A stretch of 64,000 nt of DNA from Obrimoposthia wandeli. Its lineage: Eukaryota. Shown in pieces: positions 53,087-64,000 of this stretch (position 1 is the stretch's first letter; each line of letters starts with the position of its first letter). The position numbers and the translations under genes are program-made. The DNA is taken from assembly GCA_977020255.1 (NCBI GenBank), contig CDROCS010005425.1, forward strand, positions 62,001 through 126,000. The letters are read 5' to 3'. Below the pieces are notes generated by a model that searched no databases, was not told where the DNA came from, and worked only from the letters and a program-made list of their open reading frames with translations.

Positions 53087-53584
53087 ATGACTTGTTGTGA
53101 TAAAGCGAGTTATAACGAAGATCTTGAGAATTTACCATCGTTTGCATCAAGCTCAGATGTAATGGAACTAGATGATTTGGACTTTTTGCTATCAATTAAT
53201 CTTGACGATGATCTGACTTTATCATACTCTGATATGGAAAGAAACATTCACAGTGATATAATTAAAACTGAAACAATTCCGAATTCTGATAATTCACTTA
53301 CTAATGTGCCTGATAACATTCTCCTTGATCTTCCTATAAAACATCTGAATAGTATTTTTAAAAACTCCAAATGTAACCTTAAAGAATTGAAACGTAAACG
53401 AAGAACTCTGAAGAACCGTCTATATGCTCGAGAAAGTCGGACGCGGAAGCAAACACAGCGTGCAGAAGTGCAAACCACTTCTGAACAGTACAAGACTGAG
53501 ATCGAAAAGCTCTATGCTCAGATGAATCGACTGAGAATGGAACGCGATCACTATAGACACCTCTACAACACAAGGATGCAGTAA
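53087..53584 (+). CDS. Maf: Maf-family bZIP transcription factor (divergent)
   Basis: DNILLDLPIKHLN (Maf extended homology region, cf. DEELVSMSVRELN) plus LKRKRRTLKNRLYA (Maf RRTLKNRGYA) and ERDHYR. Acidic N-terminus. The ATG directly follows a ttttag acceptor, so an upstream exon is likely. Confidence 0.88.
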   Translation: MTCCDKASYNEDLENLPSFASSSDVMELDDLDFLLSINLDDDLTLSYSDMERNIHSDIIKTETIPNSDNSLTNVPDNILLDLPIKHLNSIFKNSKCNLKELKRKRRTLKNRLYARESRTRKQTQRAEVQTTSEQYKTEIEKLYAQMNRLRMERDHYRHLYNTRMQ

Positions 53585-55217: not shown

Positions 55218-56200
55218 AGTAGGTAGAAGGATGGAGTCTAAGCCATTTGACCCCCCTGTGTGCGCACACCAAGTTAAAGGGTGGTGTGCGCACACCAAAT
55301 TAAAGGGTGTCACACCATAAGGGTGTCTTGCCACACCATAAGGGTATATGTTGCCTCACCATAGGGGTGTCACACCATAAGGGTATATGTTGCCTTACCA
55401 TAGGGGTGTCACACCATAAGGGTATATGTTGACTCACCATAAGGGTGTCTTGCCACACCATAAGGGTCTGGCTCAGAAAGTTTATGATAGGGGGGAGGGG
55501 GGAAGGGTCAAGTGGCTTAGTCTCCAACCTTCTTTGGTATACCACTATGGTCGTCCATAAATCAAAGGGTCGGACTCAGTTTTGACTTGAAGGTTTTAAG
55601 GTATGGTCATGACCGTCTATGGTTGGCCATCACATCTAAAGGGTTGTGGTCGTCCATAAATCAAAGGGTCAAGGTCAGTTTTGACTTGAAACTTTGAAGG
55701 TATAATTAAGGTCAACTATGGTTGGCCATCACATCTAAAGGGTTGTGGTCGTCCATAAATCAAAGGGTCAAGGTCAGTTTTGACTTGAAACTTTGAAGGT
55801 ATAATTAAGGTCAACTATGGTTGGCCATCACATCTAATGGGTTGTGGTCGTCCATAGGTCAAAGGGTCGGGCTAAAAATTTTTATTTTTTTTTAAATATC
55901 AAGGTTTTAGTACATGGTTGGAATCATCTTTGGAAGGTGAATTCAGTCATAAAGTATGGTCGGTCATATATGAAGGGGTCGGGATATAGACCAAATCAAG
56001 TTTTAAATGTCAAAGTTTGAATACATGGTTGTAATCATCTTTATAAGACGAATTCATCCATATAGGTATGGTCGTCCATAGATGAAGGGTTAAAAAAAGT
56101 TGGAATTTCATAGTTTCAAGTACATGGTTGTATTCGTCAGCATATTACGAGTTTATTCATGTAAAAATTGTATGGTCGTTCACAAGTTAAGGGTCAGATT
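55218..56200 (+). repeat. Polinton terminal repeat, copy 1
   Basis: Starts AGTAGGTAGAAGGATGGAG. Contains short gtgtcacaccataagg-type units, a G-run and about 99-bp subterminal repeats; homologous to 63402-64000. Confidence 0.85.
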
Positions 56201-56839
56201 TGTCATAAATTAAGAAATTATATAGTATTCAATCAATTATTCTATGTGAAAGTTCACTATTAAAAGTTAAGGAATGTATTACGTAATCATACACATGTTG
56301 GGGTTTCTATACGAGACTTGTACAGATCCTCTTGTGTGCGGAGGGCCCCAACGTGAGTTCTAATAGAAGCAGGTCTTAAAGTTGGTCGTGGCCTACTTAG
56401 TGCTATGGTTGCCTGTCTCGATTACTTATCTGAAGGTGTTTGTTTTGACGTCTCTTAATCTGAAGGGTTTAAAAACCACGTTTTCTAATGTAGGAAATCG
56501 TTTATTGGTAACACACTAGACTAAAACACAACAATACGTTTATGTACGTATCTTCTAAAAAGTATAGTAAAAATTCCTAAGACTTCTGTAAGTCTCTACA
56601 CGAGTGGGTATGAACCACGTATCGATTTTACTTAGGTGTAGTTAGTTTGTTTGGGTCTTCCTAGTATTTTGGGGGGTTTCCTAGTATTTTGGTGATTACA
56701 CAAAATCAAAGTTTGCTCTAAATTAGAGAGTCTTTCTAATAGCTGGCGGTTACAACTTTCTCTAATTTATGGAGAATTTCCTTTGAATATAACTTTACTT
56801 TAATTCAAATTTCGTCTCAACTCGCTCGTAAACACTTTC

Positions 56840-57332
56840 AAAAACTCAAGATAATTTTAATTCAAATTTCGTCTCAAAAACTCAAGATAATTTTAATTCA
56901 AATTTCGTCTCAAAAACTCAAGATAATTCTAATTCAAATTTCGTCTCAAAAACTCAAGATAATTTTAATTCAAATTTCGTCTCAAAAACTCAAGATAATT
57001 CTAATTCAAATTTCGTCTCAAAAACTCAAGATAATTTTAATTCAAATTTCGTCTCAAAACTCAAGATAATTTTAATTCAAATTTCGTCTCAAAAACTCAA
57101 GATAATTTTAATTCAAATTTCGTCTCAAAAACCCAAGATAATTTTAATTCAAATTTCGTCTCAAAAACTCAAGATAATTTTAATTCAAATTTCGTCTCAA
57201 AAACTCAAGATAATTTTAATTCAAATTTCGTCTCAAAAACTCAAGATAATTTTAATTCAAATTTCGTCTCAAAAACTCAAGATAATTTTAATTCAAATTT
57301 CGTCTCAAAAACTCAAGATAATTTTAATTCAA
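56840..57332. repeat. 36-bp minisatellite, about 13 copies
   Basis: Unit aattcaaatttcgtctcaaaaactcaagataatttt. Confidence 0.97.
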
Positions 57333-57369
57333 TATGGGTAATTTTACGATTTGCGGTAATTATACCTTT

Positions 57370-57640
57370 AATTTCTGGTAGCTGGAGATAATGCTGTTAG
57401 TTACTGGATTTCTGGTAGCTGTAGATAATGCTGCTAGTTACTGGAGAGGATTTCTGGTAGCTGTAGATAATGCTGCTAGTTACTGGAGAGGATTTCTGGT
57501 AGCTGTAGATAATGCTGCTAGTTACTGGAGAGGATTTCTGGTAGCTGTAGATAATGCTGCTAGTTACTGGAGAGGATTTCTGGTAGCTGTAGATAATGCT
57601 CTAGTTACTGGATTTCTGGTAGCTGTAGATAATGCTGCCA
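57370..57640. repeat. 42-bp minisatellite, about 6-7 copies
   Basis: Unit gatttctggtagctgtagataatgctgctagttactggagag. Confidence 0.95.
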
Positions 57641-58264
57641 ATTACGGGAGATTTGATTCCAATTCGGAGGGAGTCGCTGCCCGATCTGGTTCGAAGTGCT
57701 GTTAGTTGTTTTTTCTTCCAATTCACTGTGTTGACTTATATAGTCAATTTGAGGCGATTTGCACCTGGCCCTTGAACGTCAGTTAATAATTTGGCTAAAA
57801 AATAATATGCCTACTTTGCTGACTGTCAATCTTCTTTTCTGCTGACTTTGCTGTTTTCTTGATTAATTTTCTTTTTTCTCTTTTCTTAATTAACTTCTTT
57901 TTTTGCTGACAGTGCTATTTATTTTTGCACTTTTACTAGTTAATTTTAACCTTATATATAACACATTATACACGACCTTCGTGGTCCTCTTAATATTTAT
58001 TCCTATTTTAGTCCTAATAATTTAACTTGATTTTAAAATTAAAATTAATTTAATTCTCAACCTTGCTTTCAAGTATTTTTATTTTACTATAAAACAATTA
58101 TTTATTTTTAATTTTACTCAAAACCTAATCTTAACACACACACTATTCTATGTGAAAATTTAGATCAAAGTTTTTTCCAGGCTTATGCATCTAAAGAAAT
58201 ATGGTAAAATTTATTTAAATAACATAAATTATATATTAAAATAAAATATCCTTAATAAATATAT

Positions 58265-58718
58265 TTATATACAATTTACATAATCAATACATAGAGAAAA
58301 ACATTTCAAATAAGCACAATGTTTTCCGTGTTTTCTAAACGGACATCGAATATTTTTGTGGCATTTTCTTTAAATTTTTGAAACTTTTATTATAATTCAC
58401 AATTCTCAAATTTGGAAACATTCGTTTCACTAAATTAATTTTCTTTCCATCAATAGAATCCATAACATAGAATATTGTTTCAACATCATCAATATGAATA
58501 TCAGAGCTTTCACCTTCAAACCAGGATAACTGATGATGATGATTTATCAAATATAGATTTTTTCTTTTAACTGTAAATGATAAACTACTCCATGGTATTT
58601 GATTTTTAAACACGTAATGAAATGGACAAGTCATATCATTCACATACATTATACATAATTCCTTTGGAATATATTCTCCATTATTATCAATAAAACATTC
58701 TAAATCAATAAAAGCCAT
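58265..58718 (-). pseudogene. Polinton-associated DEDD-exonuclease-like protein, frameshifted near 3' end
   Basis: N-terminal FIDLECF (DxE ExoI-like), PKELCI and HHQLSWFEG. An alternative frame continues KCHKNIRCPFRKHGKHCAYLKCFSLCIDYVNCI* after a shift in an A-run near 58365. Confidence 0.5.
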
Positions 58719-58769
58719 TTGAAAAAATAAAATGAAATACTATAATGATATATTTGTTTATACTTAAAA

Positions 58770-59108
58770 TTATTTGTGTTGAAGTTTCAACCATAAAAGA
58801 CTCAGAGGTCCGCAGTTTATAGTTAATGGATTCTGACATTTAACTCGATTATAGTAGACTGGAATGTTTTCTTTTTCAAGTGTAGACACCAACTTTGAAG
58901 GATAATAGAATCCAAAAGGATCAAACACTCGAATCTCGAATCTGTCAACGAATATTGCTATCCAATGTTCGCCTGGTAGATTTGAAGTATGAGTATTGAT
59001 AATGTAGCCTCCGGGTTTTAATGATGGAATTTTATCCAATGAATATACTCCATTAAATTTGTTATTCAATAATATTTTTCCGGATTTATAAATTTCTAAA
59101 GTACTAAT
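58770..59108 (-). CDS. Adenain-like cysteine protease (Polinton PRO); ATG apparently mutated to ATT
   Basis: NTHTSNLPGEHWIA (His), FDPFG (Asp), CQNPLTINCG (Gln/Cys). The frame is open upstream to ATT-AGT-ACT-TTA-GAA-ATT (cf. MNTLEI) at 59108. Confidence 0.9.
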   Translation of the reverse strand: MSTLEIYKSGKILLNNKFNGVYSLDKIPSLKPGGYIINTHTSNLPGEHWIAIFVDRFEIRVFDPFGFYYPSKLVSTLEKENIPVYYNRVKCQNPLTINCGPLSLLWLKLQHK

Positions 59109-59142
59109 TTAAATAAAGAATATAATATACAATAAGCTTACT

Positions 59143-60363
59143 TCATACAATCACAGTTTTATTTTTCGTAATCTGAATTTCAGAATCAAATATTCCGTAA
59201 ATCAAAACACTTGTTGGAACAACCAAAGGAGAATTAAATCTAATTTCAAGTCTTAAATTACCAGTTTTAGGCACTTGAGTAGTGTTTATATCAAAATCTG
59301 GTGCTAATAGAAAAGTGAAAATCGAACTTCCTGATTTAAAATCAGAAAATCTGATACCATTATTCAAGTTTTTATCTAAAATATTCATATTTCGAATAAT
59401 TGACTGCATATATGCTAATGAAAAATTGTTATTATCTAGATTATAAGTTTCTCGATAATCTGTATTTCTAGCTAATGATATTGTTGAAACATTAAATGTA
59501 TTGAACGTAGAAGATTTAACTTTGTATTCCTTACCACCCTGAGGTGTATCTTTGAAAGCAATCAAAATGAACTTGGGTAAACGATAGTCTCCGAATATTT
59601 GATCTTTATTATGTTCCAAAGAACCCTGAGGAATTGAATATGTTACTAACTGAGTTTTTCTAATTGGGTAAACTGCATTCTGACTTTGCAAACCTAACTG
59701 ATGTCCAATCATTACTGAAGAATCAACTTTTACTCTTCTAACATACAATCTAGCATCTACAATTTGAATAATTGGTTTTGAAGTTTCTGAATAGAGCGAA
59801 AGATTATGCTGATTTCTCATAAATCTCAAATGAACATTAATCCCTGGAATCAAATATTTTGGTTGATCAAAAAAATCTAATCTAATTGAATTACACAATG
59901 AAAATATTTTAGATTCACTAATCCATTGTTTACGATCTTTTGCATCATCATCATACCCGGAACATTCAAGGTTAGTATACTTGGTATCACTACTAAAATT
60001 CAAAAGAGTATCGAATATAGCCTTATGAGTATACGTTCCATTTCCTCCTTCAACCTTTACATTATTAAGTGTTAGAATAACATCTCTAAACAAAGTTTGA
60101 AACATGTAATTCTCTGGAGTTACATCGTTATCTTTCATTAAATCAGTACCATCTTCATTTACAACTTTTAATTTAATATTTAACAAAGTATCATTCAAAT
60201 CCAGATAATCTTCTTCAGATGCATGAATATTAAATTCTATGTCATTTAAATTTCCACCAGTAATTGAATTGATTGGAAATATTTCTTCAAAACTTGAATT
60301 TTCAATCACTACTTGAGGTAGTGGTCTATCGAAAATACACAATTCAGATTTTATACTAGTCAT
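59143..60363 (-). CDS. Polinton major capsid protein (double jelly-roll, PY/hexon-like), intact 406 aa
   Basis: KSELCIF...IEFNI...DYLDLNDTLLNIKLKVV, DFFDQPKYLIPGINVHLRF, ARLYVRRVKV and GNLRLEIRF match the Polinton MCP pattern as recalled. Confidence 0.92.
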   Translation of the reverse strand: MTSIKSELCIFDRPLPQVVIENSSFEEIFPINSITGGNLNDIEFNIHASEEDYLDLNDTLLNIKLKVVNEDGTDLMKDNDVTPENYMFQTLFRDVILTLNNVKVEGGNGTYTHKAIFDTLLNFSSDTKYTNLECSGYDDDAKDRKQWISESKIFSLCNSIRLDFFDQPKYLIPGINVHLRFMRNQHNLSLYSETSKPIIQIVDARLYVRRVKVDSSVMIGHQLGLQSQNAVYPIRKTQLVTYSIPQGSLEHNKDQIFGDYRLPKFILIAFKDTPQGGKEYKVKSSTFNTFNVSTISLARNTDYRETYNLDNNNFSLAYMQSIIRNMNILDKNLNNGIRFSDFKSGSSIFTFLLAPDFDINTTQVPKTGNLRLEIRFNSPLVVPTSVLIYGIFDSEIQITKNKTVIV

Positions 60364-60760
60364 TTTTGGAAAATAGTACCTTTAAGACGTTTGTTTATAC
60401 TATTTAAATGATTTCTTTTTACGTTTAAGACCCTTTCCATTTTGTTCAACACAATTTGCGACTTTATTTAAACTCTCAACAGCATTATTTTTTAATTTTG
60501 GAATCAAAGTTTTGCCTTCTTTGATTGTATTTTCTTTGAGAGTTGAAATTAAGTTTTTGGATTTGTTAACGCAGTTCCTCCCGTTTCGCCAATTGCATTG
60601 GCAGCACTTGTAGCTGCTGATAAACCAGCTTTTTAATAAATGGAATAGCTAATCTAGAAATAGTTTGAAACCAACCAGATCCATATTGCTTACCAATGAA
60701 ATAAGGAAGTTCACCGCCCTGTTGACTTTTGCTATAAAATTTTATAATTGATGTATTCAT
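60362..60760 (-). pseudogene. Small conserved Polinton core/membrane-lytic-like protein, frameshifted
   Basis: QQGGELPYFIGKQYGSGWFQTISRLAIPFIKK (conserved QxGG.LP.F.G..Q.GxG amphipathic motif). Continues after A-run frameshifts as AGLSAATSAANAIG...EQNGKGLKRKKK. Confidence 0.65.
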
Positions 60761-60788
60761 TTTTATATTTTAAATATATTTATATTGT

Positions 60789-61802
60789 TTATACTTTACG
60801 TAAATGAAGAGTTAAACTAGTTTTTGCTCCATATGAAAATGGAATTAAATTACCAGAATCATCAAGTATATTTACCTCGATTCTATTAATACTTGAATCT
60901 CTCATTTTCAAGTACATTGGATTATCAATTTTAACATTTACTACATCTCCATATCGATATTTTAATGATTTTAACCAAATAGACTTTAACAGTGGAACAT
61001 AATCAGATCCTACTAAGACAGAATCTGTTAAACTAGTATAAATATACATTTGATTATATGAGCTAGAAAGTGTTGGTTCTTGAAAACCTTTAATTCGTTT
61101 CTCAAAGAAAACATTATTTAAACCTAATAAAGATGCAAGTTTTTCGTCAAATAAAACTGATTTTACATTTTTCTTTATTAAAATATCAAATTATCCGTTT
61201 GAATCTATATTACAGCTTTTAAAAATCGCATTACATTTACTGGCTATAATATTACATAATGAAGAACTATCTTGTATCAAATAATTTTGATTAAATTTTA
61301 TTTCATATTCATATTCAGCTAAAGAATAAATTGTAATTCTCATTTTAGCATGAATATTTTTATTTATGTCAACAATTTCATCACTTGTTATAACATGACT
61401 AGAAATTTTTTGTATTTCATTAAAACCTATAATTTTTGATTCTTCTAAAGATTCGAATTTTAACAACATTCGATGAATACTGTTAATTGTACTTATTTCT
61501 AATTTTTGATCCTTTGTAATTTTGAAATTGAAAACATTATTTAAATTATTAAAAATTAATCCATTTAAAATTGCAAAAGATACATCGAAAGTTTTCATTT
61601 CTATCTTTTCTGTTTTATAAAGTATTTTTGAATTAGTTTGTATTGTTAAAGGAGTATAATTAAATACAAATTCAGTCAAGGCAACCTCCCATTCACCATC
61701 TAAATTTAGAGAGTTTTCCCAATCTACAGTAAATTGATTGGCTGTATTGTTAGGTTGAGTACTTGGACAACTATTACTAGGTAAAATAATATATTTTGAC
61801 AT
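60789..61802 (-). pseudogene. Polinton minor capsid protein (penton, PX) split by one nonsense codon
   Basis: YIILPSNS...LDGEWEVALTE and YIYTSL...VGSDYVPLL...IEVNILDDSG...LHLRK. The two ORFs are in the same frame, separated only by TAA at 61191-61193. Confidence 0.9.
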
Positions 61803-62591
61803 TATTCAATTTGAGAAGCAAATATCCAAGAAGGTTCAGAGTATCCGTGCCACTTTACGTAATATTGTTTATTCTTACCACGACCTTTAGTTTCTAAAAT
61901 TTCTTGTATTCGATATAGTTTAGGTTTATCAATTAATTGTAACTCTTGTTTATAAAATTTTCCTTTGATGATGACGTTATCAATATCTTTTAAAATATAC
62001 ATTATTGGATTTTGTTTATAATTAATATCATGAATTTGAAAAACCTCATAACTCCAATTTTGATTAAAATTTTTAATAAATGGACTTGTACTTATTTTTG
62101 ATATTCGAACATAATCATCAATTTTATATTTAGATTTAACTTTCTTTTCTTTTGGATTTTGTTTCAACCAAATTTCAAATGCATTTTTATTATTTGCATC
62201 TACAGGTTTTAAACCATCTAAACCTCTATGTTTAGAATTATTATAAGCATAAATAATTTTTGGTAATACATTCACCCGATTTTGATTTAATACCAACTGC
62301 CCTTGCAAAACGACTAAATACATCAATACAAGTTAAAATATACTTGAATCCGTTATTTACTGAAGAATAAGGTATCATTTCCATTAAATCCATCTGCCAT
62401 AAGGAATTAATATCATTAGTTTTATATGATCTAGTAGGAAATTTACGTCTTAAAGGTTTATTCAAACTATATGATAATTCATTTCTTAACCATTTTTGTG
62501 TGTTTGTTTTTGATTGTTTGACTCTTTTTGTCAATTTTTCTAACCCTGTATACCCGTCTGGATCTTCTGGATTGTTCCAAATCTTTTCCAT
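61802..62591 (-). pseudogene. Polinton retroviral-like integrase with chromodomain, catalytic core deleted
   Basis: WQMDLMEM...YILTCIDVFSRFA, then a frameshifted join to VLPKIIYAYNNSKHR...VRISK...WSYEVF and chromodomain QYYVKWHGYSEPSWI. Confidence 0.92.
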
Positions 62592-62921
62592 TGCAGCATG
62601 AAGAATTAAAATTTATAAATAAGTTAGACAACTTTGTATTGTTTATCCCCATTATCATAAAAGTTAAATATATTTTAATCTGTTTATATGTTTGTATAAA
62701 ACGAAATAATGTAATTATTTAATATTATTATTATAATTTTCGTTATTAAGGCAACTATCATAATTAAATAGGCACAATTCAATTGTAACAATTGAGATAA
62801 TTATATTATTATCAATAATTGAAATTACATAATAGGATATCTATTATAAATTGAAATGTTAAATTAAATATAATTTACTATTTTGTTATTTTTCTTTAAT
62901 TTAAATAAATCAAGACTCAAA

Positions 62922-63198
62922 ATGAATACGTGAGTTTATTATATATATATATATATATTTTTTTAATTATGATTTATATTTAGATTTAATTGCCAAATAT
63001 GTCAAACAGGACCAATGAATAATAAATATTCAATGGATGCTCATATGCAGAGTAAGAAACATAAAAAGTAATTTTTTTTTCCTTTTTAAAATTAATTTTA
63101 ATATTGTTTTTAGACTAGCAGCCGCGGTAATGATTCCTACATCAGCATCAACAACAATGGTTCCTGGTACATCGGGAGAATCTACTTCAACATTTAAT
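62922..63198 (+). CDS. Small spliced gene encoding a U1/matrin-type C2H2 zinc finger (exons 62922-62929, 62984-63067, 63114-63198; last exon uncertain)
   Basis: GT-AG introns of 54 and 46 bp with consistent phases give MNTFNCQICQTGPMNNKYSMDAHMQSKKHKKLAAAVMIPTSASTTMVPGTSGESTSTFN (C-x2-C-x13-H-x5-H, SKKH). Third donor gtaagt at 63199. Confidence 0.75.
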
Positions 63199-63401
63199 GT
63201 AAGTTTCTTATTAATGTTACTTTGTAAGACTCTTATATAATTTTATAATTTTTTTTTAAAACTTCTAACTTCTTGAAGTTATAAGACCAGCTATTACTGA
63301 TGCTATAGCGGGCAGTATGGCCAATAGGAATCCGCCATTTTGATTATAAATAATGTTTCTTTTATTAATTTTACCACGTGAATTTGCTAAATTTATTAAT
63401 G

Positions 63402-64000
63402 AGTAGGTAGAAGGATGGAGTCTAGATCACTTGACCCCCCACCCCACTGTGTGCGCACACCAAGTTAAAGGGTGTCACACCATAAGGGTGTCACACCATA
63501 AGGGTGTCTTGCCACACCATAAGGGTATATGTTGCCTCACCATATAAATGTCACACCATGAAGGTATATGTTGACTCACCATAAGGGTGTCACACCATAA
63601 GGGTATATGTTGCCTCACCATAAGGGTATGGCTCAGAAAGGTTAAGATAGGGGGAGGGGGGAAGGGTCAATTGATCTAGTCTCCACCCTTCTTTGATATA
63701 TCACTATGGTCGTCCATAAATCAAAGGGTCAAGGTCAGTTTTGACTTGAAACTTTGAAGGTATAATTAAGGTCAACTATGGTCGGCCAACATACCCAAGG
63801 GGTTGTGGTCGTCCATAATTCAAAGGGTCAAGGTCAGTTTTGACTTGAAACTTTGAAGGTATAATTAAGGTCAACTATGGTTGACTAACACATCTAAAGG
63901 GTCATGAACGTCCATAAATCAAAGGGTCAAGGTCAGTTTTGACTTGAAACTTTGAAGGTATAATTAAGGTCAACTATGGTTGGTCATCACATCTAAAGGG
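63402..64000 (+). mobile_element. Second Polinton terminus in the same orientation (runs off the window)
   Basis: Starts with the identical AGTAGGTAGAAGGATGGAGTCTA and has the same internal repeat architecture as 55218-55860, but is not identical. Confidence 0.88.

Follow-up and report, generated by a model that had tools for sequence, protein, structure and literature searches.

We found a small, probably spliced gene for a zinc-finger protein inside a Polinton/Maverick element of Obrimoposthia wandeli, at the end of a 64,000-nucleotide stretch of contig CDROCS010005425.1 (hereafter the window). The gene would encode a protein of 60-72 residues, consisting of one U1/matrin-class C2H2 finger followed by a short low-complexity tail. 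We regard it as very probably a real gene that is inherited within Polintons. The reading towards which we lean, with moderate confidence, is that it represents a spliced accessory gene of the Polinton/Maverick lineage, whose small product would work in the nucleus, bind nucleic acid and regulate the element.

The gene model lies on the forward strand. Coding exon 1 (62922-62929) would consist of an ATG and five further nucleotides, 8 nt in all, ending in phase 2; a first exon of this size is required because exon 2 offers no in-frame ATG ahead of its cysteines. Both the ATG and the donor of exon 1 are unbroken in the 29 other copies examined from the same family, family A (L002-L030). Intron 1 (62930-62983; 54 nt, GTGAGT..TTTAG, 91% AT) carries a (TA)n tract, varies between 49 and 61 nt across these copies and has an altered acceptor in four of the 29. 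Exon 2 (62984-63067; 84 nt) encodes the single finger and the lysines that follow it. Intron 2 (63068-63113; 46 nt, GTAATT..TTTAG, 89% AT) is again of the GT-AG type and lies in phase 2. It leads to exon 3 (63114-63198; 85 nt, 58% AT), an Ala/Ser/Thr-rich linker that ends in phase 0, is constant in length over the 29 copies and gave no match in Pfam. The phases of exons 1-3 are all mutually compatible. An 8-nt exon, GT-AG introns of 54 and 46 nt with matching phases and a Ser/Thr tail had been proposed at these positions in the initial annotation, and each was recovered here. Since a host chaperonin gene has a GT-AG intron of 42 nt (other host gaps are about 70-135 nt), introns of 46-54 nt are plausible in this genome. 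Judged by comparison among copies and families, the splice model of exons 1-3 is likely to be correct, and splicing would be carried out by the host spliceosome. Separately, about 20 diverged, intronless GroEL-type genes lie on separate contigs (L266-L272 and more); the three examined look bacterial, and the assembly therefore probably includes bacterial contigs.

Fifty-nine codons precede a third donor, the phase-0 GTAAGT at 63199; if this donor is left unspliced, the frame stops at 63240. A probable intron 3 and a last coding stretch of one to five codons would occupy 63199-63308 (forward strand), with candidate acceptors at 63278, 63285 and 63290 that add one, four or five residues and lead to stops at 63284, 63300 or 63308. 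These stops do not agree with the gene end formerly placed at 63345, and an open frame ending at 63343 was rejected as the last exon, being out of phase with all three acceptors. The three AG candidates exist as proposed, but what had been read as the last exon is the antisense of a second gene, within whose ORF all three acceptors fall. A CTAAC at 63265 may be the branch point; it coincides with the stop codon of that ORF.

The 3' end of the opposing ORF (63265-63402, reverse strand) encodes a Q-N-G-G-F-L motif and a hydrophobic tail. In most other copies the ORF runs to 136 residues from its ATG, and it matched nothing in Pfam or the PDB. We call it a pX-like core-protein gene, a name that is owed in part to what we take to be a resemblance to adenovirus pX. 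The name also rests partly on section 3.2 of PMC8502044. The finger gene and the pX-like gene overlap tail to tail at 63265-63308, and their two transcripts could therefore pair. The same ORF bears on a YY1-like site that had been proposed at 63332-63341. The sequence CCGCCATTTT is present there, but it reads, on the opposite strand, as the codons for Q-N-G-G in the pX-like ORF. Of 11 metagenomic relatives examined, eight keep the peptide G-G-F, and none of those eight has the CCGCCATTTT 10-mer. We rejected the YY1 reading on these grounds, the site being opposite-strand coding sequence in which the peptide is conserved and the 10-mer is not.

The finger encoded by exon 2 has the pattern C-x2-C-x13-H-x5-H, which occurs once in the window compared with 0.033 times per shuffled window (30 shuffles); no further finger pattern was found in the whole window or in the flanks of three other copies. 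Against the two Pfam models named in the initial annotation, it scored 23.9 bits on zf-met (PF12874), above the cut-off of 21.2, but 22.4 bits on zf-C2H2_jaz (PF12171), below the cut-off of 22.6. Among the aligned family members, 15 of 16 match zf-met. A predicted model of the finger protein contains two strands and a helix (pLDDT 74.8). The best matches in the PDB are the fingers of SF3A2/Prp11, which are weak at E 0.004-0.02, and a Foldseek search with the predicted model ranked chains of the U2 snRNP and spliceosome first, none of them at E 0.001 or better. The assignment to the U1/matrin class thus stands, with zf-met over its cut-off, but JAZ does not hold as the nearest relative: sequence and predicted structure point, through a weak match, to the SF3A2/Prp11 finger as the nearest solved one.

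The class of the finger also bears on an alternative function, namely that the protein is an RNA-silencing suppressor whose finger would bind double-stranded RNA or small-RNA duplexes and shield the element's transcripts from RNAi or piRNA. Consistent with such a role, zf-C2H2_jaz is matched with an E-value no higher than 0.05 by 15 of the 16 family members, the window finger misses that model's cut-off by only 0.2 bits, the antisense overlap with the pX-like gene is a possible source of double-stranded RNA, and the family has spread to hundreds of near-identical copies. However, the closest solved relatives are those of SF3A2/Prp11, the protein has a single finger where ZNF346 has four (as given in the accessible part of 10.64898/2026.06.03.729416), and family B, a sister family, stands at high copy number with no finger seen. 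Silencing suppression as the function is unsupported, a guess, and we consider this explanation quite improbable.

The carrier of the finger gene is a Polinton/Maverick element. A Polinton rve integrase with a chromodomain lies at 61802-62591 on the reverse strand; in the window copy it is disrupted by a deletion of about 228 bp and scores 26.3 bits against PF00665, below the cut-off of 32.6, with the chromodomain also present. Other copies hold full integrase frames of 341 aa. The start codons of integrase and finger gene, on opposite strands, are separated by a spacer of 330 bp (62592-62921; 83% AT) that presumably holds promoters, in agreement with the initial annotation, which had described divergent transcription across about 330 bp of AT-rich DNA. 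The virion module (58335-61805, reverse strand) comprises penton-like, pVII-like, major capsid and adenain-type protease genes and one more conserved ORF, names that we take mostly from gene order and recall, Pfam support being weak. On fragments, Peptidase_C5 reached 17.3 bits and Pox_A32 (packaging ATPase) 18.1 bits, both below cut-off. The capsid, protease and ATPase genes form a block in conserved order, and a matching block is present in metagenomic relatives. In three other copies an ORF of 1,037-1,073 aa occupies the expected position of the polymerase, and Pfam recognised only its endonuclease VII domain. The layout of family A comprises the virion module with the integrase, the finger gene on the opposite strand, the pX-like ORF, the packaging ATPase, two ORFs and the polymerase-sized ORF. 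One of the two ORFs between the ATPase and the polymerase-sized ORF encodes a TBP-like protein (PF00352, 44 bits, cut-off 22.9).

Several further features of the region were recorded. The TBP-like gene adjoins the putative polymerase (L065:5-523, reverse strand), and a tblastn match to its protein was obtained in 6 of 18 metagenomic loci of at least 4 kb (L191, L195, L210, L219, L221, L222); in the part of PMC8502044 consulted, a figure legend names TBP-like genes in related viruses. The terminus of a second element (63403-64000, forward strand) begins AGTAGGTAG, carries 39- and 99-bp repeats and is inserted in the pX-like ORF, outside the finger gene. It is 86% like the terminus at 55218 (55218-56194); these AGTAG-type termini both start AGTAGGTAG in the same orientation, the one at 63403 being a nested insertion. 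Tandem arrays of 36 bp and 42 bp occupy 56838-57651, between terminus and virion module, and an intronless bZIP-Maf ORF (53087-53584, forward strand, 48.6 bits) lies 1.6 kb beyond the element's left terminus.

Family A is a high-copy Polinton family. The 581-bp region around the finger gene gave 1,094 first-look DNA candidates in the genome, and all 40 that were scored are at least 96% identical; the finger peptide gave 632 candidates, and all 150 that were scored are identical. A single Polinton integrase query returned 44,752 first-look candidates genome-wide, a very heavy load made up of several young families. All 29 other fetched loci run on from the finger gene into the integrase, and there are homologues in other Polinton families (see below), which bears out the earlier view of a Polinton-borne gene as opposed to a single-copy host gene.

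The accompanying suggestion that the finger gene is undamaged while viral genes decay was not upheld. By an alignment-based count it is free of lesions in 19 of the 29 other copies and damaged in 10, compared with 9 of 29 intact for the integrase (1 kb) and 21 of 29 for the pX-like ORF. Lesions per kb come to about 2.2 in the finger gene, 1.1 in the integrase and 0.8 in the pX-like ORF, with stricter criteria applied to the finger gene. Copies thus lose it as fast as they lose viral genes and per base it is no better kept, its seeming preservation being due to the small size of the target. A selection test among young copies was discarded as uninformative, because their differences are mostly post-insertion and the indels lie in homopolymer and (TA)n tracts.

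Homologues were collected by a zf-met scan of the genome and by searches with two of its matches. Related fingers were found in at least three further Polinton lineages (C, D and E/F); they are 42-56% identical to that of the window and have 12 residues between the second Cys and the first His. Their carriers encode proteases 45-72% and capsids 51-62% identical to the window's, and the proteases of C, D and E/F resemble one another at 69-85%. In 32 of 48 three-kb homologue loci a further Polinton gene is present, in most cases the virion module's protease end.

Of 42 homologues, 36 have a GT one codon past the last His, compared with 0 of 24 control fingers that the same scans supplied, and an ATG stands 2-3 codons ahead of the first Cys in 39 of 42 compared with 1 of 24; loci in which the finger had departed from the pattern are left out of the 42. 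The intron that would follow the finger in the homologues is at phase 0, two bases earlier than intron 2 of family A, and intron 1 is confined to family A, without a counterpart in C, D or E/F. Short AT-rich introns after the homologue fingers lead to exons of 60, 63 and 72 nt that begin and end in phase 0. The proportion of synonymous differences exceeded that of nonsynonymous ones in all 10 family pairs (pS 0.32-0.83, pN 0.09-0.30), barely so for A against F (pS 0.32, pN 0.27); pN is lowered by the choice of homologues through protein similarity, and for the same reason their conserved Cys and His prove nothing. Taken together, the conserved donor after the finger and the excess of pS over pN argue for an inherited accessory gene and against a host gene.

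In families C and E/F (L183, L188, L144) the finger is followed by chains of short phase-0 exons and by an acidic amphipathic motif that these families share. This motif, E-x-L-Y-[KR]-I-L-E, lies in a later exon at 14 of 19 E/F loci and 4 of 12 C loci; it was found at 0 of 54 family-A and 0 of 11 family-D loci. An identity with E1A CR1 was rejected, the motif departing by eye from the pattern given in PMC8502044. Two other kinds of finger were encountered. A zf-met-scoring group (L093-L096, L100-L102, L107, L109, L110, L112) heads a polymerase-adjacent ORF in a different Polinton family, with a donor after the finger in 0 of 12, and at L132 a lone finger near an ATG precedes a GTAAGA donor, no Polinton gene lying closer than 2.5 kb.

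These comparisons weigh on two further explanations. Under the first, exons 1-3 would be leader exons, with the donor at 63199 splicing across a long intron to the putative protein-primed polymerase on the same strand to give a finger-tagged enzyme. While this would account for a phase-0 donor that is strong yet lacks a convincing last exon behind it, the putative polymerase ORF is about 2.2 kb off and has ATGs of its own, and four genes on the opposite strand lie in between; moreover, the finger gene in C, D and E/F mostly faces a convergent gene, and in family D the exon after the finger stops after 23 codons. We consider such a fusion very improbable. Under the second, the finger is a host gene or a chance pattern unconnected with the element. 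Ordinary host matrin-type fingers do occur in this genome, and the matches in outside databases are all to multi-finger proteins of hosts, but the hundreds of copies always lie in an element context, the pattern is rare in shuffled sequence and the intron is conserved across divergent families. This explanation is largely refuted, and we give it hardly any credence.

In the sister family B, the finger was found in 0 of 25 integrase loci and in 0 of 6 further 7-kb stretches. There, as in the 11 metagenomic relatives showing both genes, the pX-like ORF adjoins the integrase without a finger between them, which shows the finger gene to have been inserted within a conserved block. Beyond this genome, the protein databases, viral contigs and metagenomic Polinton loci searched yielded no homologue carried by a Polinton. 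A word-based protein-database search with the 51-aa natural frame gave no match. A profile search of 1.84 billion proteins gave 58 matches, 57 of them with at least two matched stretches; ten of the 58 were looked up, and the five with names are all plant multi-finger proteins. The ESM Atlas yielded small finger clusters of a generic kind (0.92-0.93) whose counts of shared features are low, scans of viral contigs revealed no relative, and 70 metagenomic Polinton capsid loci (233,209 bases, mostly fragments) contained no finger, the best score being 2.6 bits. Because a spliced micro-gene escapes ORF-based catalogues, the outside negatives do not show absence. The gene is dispensable for the lineage, since it was seen neither in family B nor in the 70 metagenomic relatives.

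Dispensability leads to the possibility that the finger gene is a vestigial passenger, a once-functional accessory gene that lost its effector exon in family A and is now copied passively. The acidic motif is indeed missing from every family-A locus, 10 of the 29 copies carry lesions, the first acceptor is changed in four, and sister family B and the outside relatives manage without a finger. However, all four zinc ligands, the three in-phase exons and the family-specific first intron have been retained, the four comparisons involving family A all have pS above pN, and the lesions are scattered over single copies, as expected of damage after insertion. We judge this explanation improbable.

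Our preferred reading remains that of a functional accessory gene whose product would regulate the element. Matrin-class fingers bind structured RNA or other nucleic acid in snRNPs. The finger may derive from a host gene of the matrin type, one that a weak similarity would place near SF3A2, and the finger gene would then have moved as a unit between element families, coming to lie in family A between the pX-like gene and the integrase. Splicing by the host would yield a small nuclear adaptor. Its finger would hold structured RNA or other nucleic acid while its tail brought in a partner, and the adaptor would thereby tune how the element's own transcripts are expressed or processed. The acidic amphipathic exon of families C and E/F would supply the contact with that partner; family A, which is without this exon, would carry a reduced form. 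To a role in adjusting the expression or RNA processing of the element itself we give slightly less than even confidence. The presence of a TBP-like gene is in keeping with an element that brings along regulators of its own. Against a regulator may be set the loss of the gene from copies as fast as viral genes, the two-base offset of the intron after the finger and the weakness of the link to SF3A2.

A bolder proposal, which we think rather unlikely, is that an SF3A2-like host finger has become a movable regulatory module and forms, together with the TBP-like gene, a viral gene-control kit. The finger and an acidic activation or recruitment motif would then act like adenovirus E1A or an anti-silencing factor and, if this were true, the kit would have helped the elements to reach their very high copy numbers. 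For the question of how Polintons govern their gene expression and withstand silencing by the host, the gene described here offers a small candidate regulator. Published Polinton maps rest on long intronless ORFs, and a spliced gene of 60 residues shared by several families is what they miss; micro-exon genes are thus worth seeking in the short gaps of Polintons. The reach of the finding is limited for now to the one genome in which it was made.

Among known fingers, the protein resembles those of SF3A2/SF3a66/Prp11 (6qx9_A2, 5gm6_I) in its C-x2-C..H-x5-H arrangement, T, N-E, S and G-K-K-H occupy corresponding places, and the predicted fold is similar (rmsd about 1.2 Å over 28 columns). It differs from SF3A2 in that the match is weak (E 0.004), no other SF3A2 domain is present and the gap between the second Cys and the first His is 13 residues instead of 12. 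The fingers of ZNF346/JAZ and ZMAT3 (PF12171) belong to the same broad class, as reflected by the score on the JAZ model, but that score lies below the cut-off, and those proteins have three or four fingers instead of one. The four fingers of ZNF346 have high avidity for double-stranded RNA, according to the accessible part of 10.64898/2026.06.03.729416.

A stand-alone matrin-type finger in Polintons was not found in the literature searched, in which few subscription journals were represented. One supplementary text file of PMC8502044 contains none of the terms zinc, ZnF, TBP, matrin or C2H2 (its genome-map figures could show such a gene), the main text of PMC10748475 does not contain 'zinc', and the accessible part of PMC11071308 held nothing relevant. 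The adintovirus Oncoid genes, which combine LXCXE and CK2 motifs beside paired CXXC and usually lie upstream of PolB (PMC8502044 section 3.2), are likewise small candidate regulators with a zinc-binding motif in animal Polintons. In contrast to them, our gene encodes a C2H2 matrin-class finger and has introns, and by eye an LXCXE with a CK2 site beside paired CXXC is absent from the translations of exons 1-3.

The closest parallel in gene structure comes from Mavericks themselves. The core genes of vertebrate Mavericks are reported to be intronless, with accessory regions at the flanks (PMC8097293, as far as consulted), and nematode Mavericks carry intron-bearing cargo, the WASP proteases and KRMA kinases (10.1101/2022.07.12.499685, as far as consulted). 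Like this cargo, the finger gene is a host-style, intron-bearing gene amid intronless viral core genes. The nematode cargo, however, is made up of large enzymes and occupies a variable region bounded by the left terminus and the integrase, whereas the finger protein has 60-70 residues and its gene lies inside the core block in family A and near the element end in the other families. Intron-bearing cargo is therefore known in itself; what appears to be new is a stand-alone, probably spliced matrin-class finger gene as the cargo of a Maverick.
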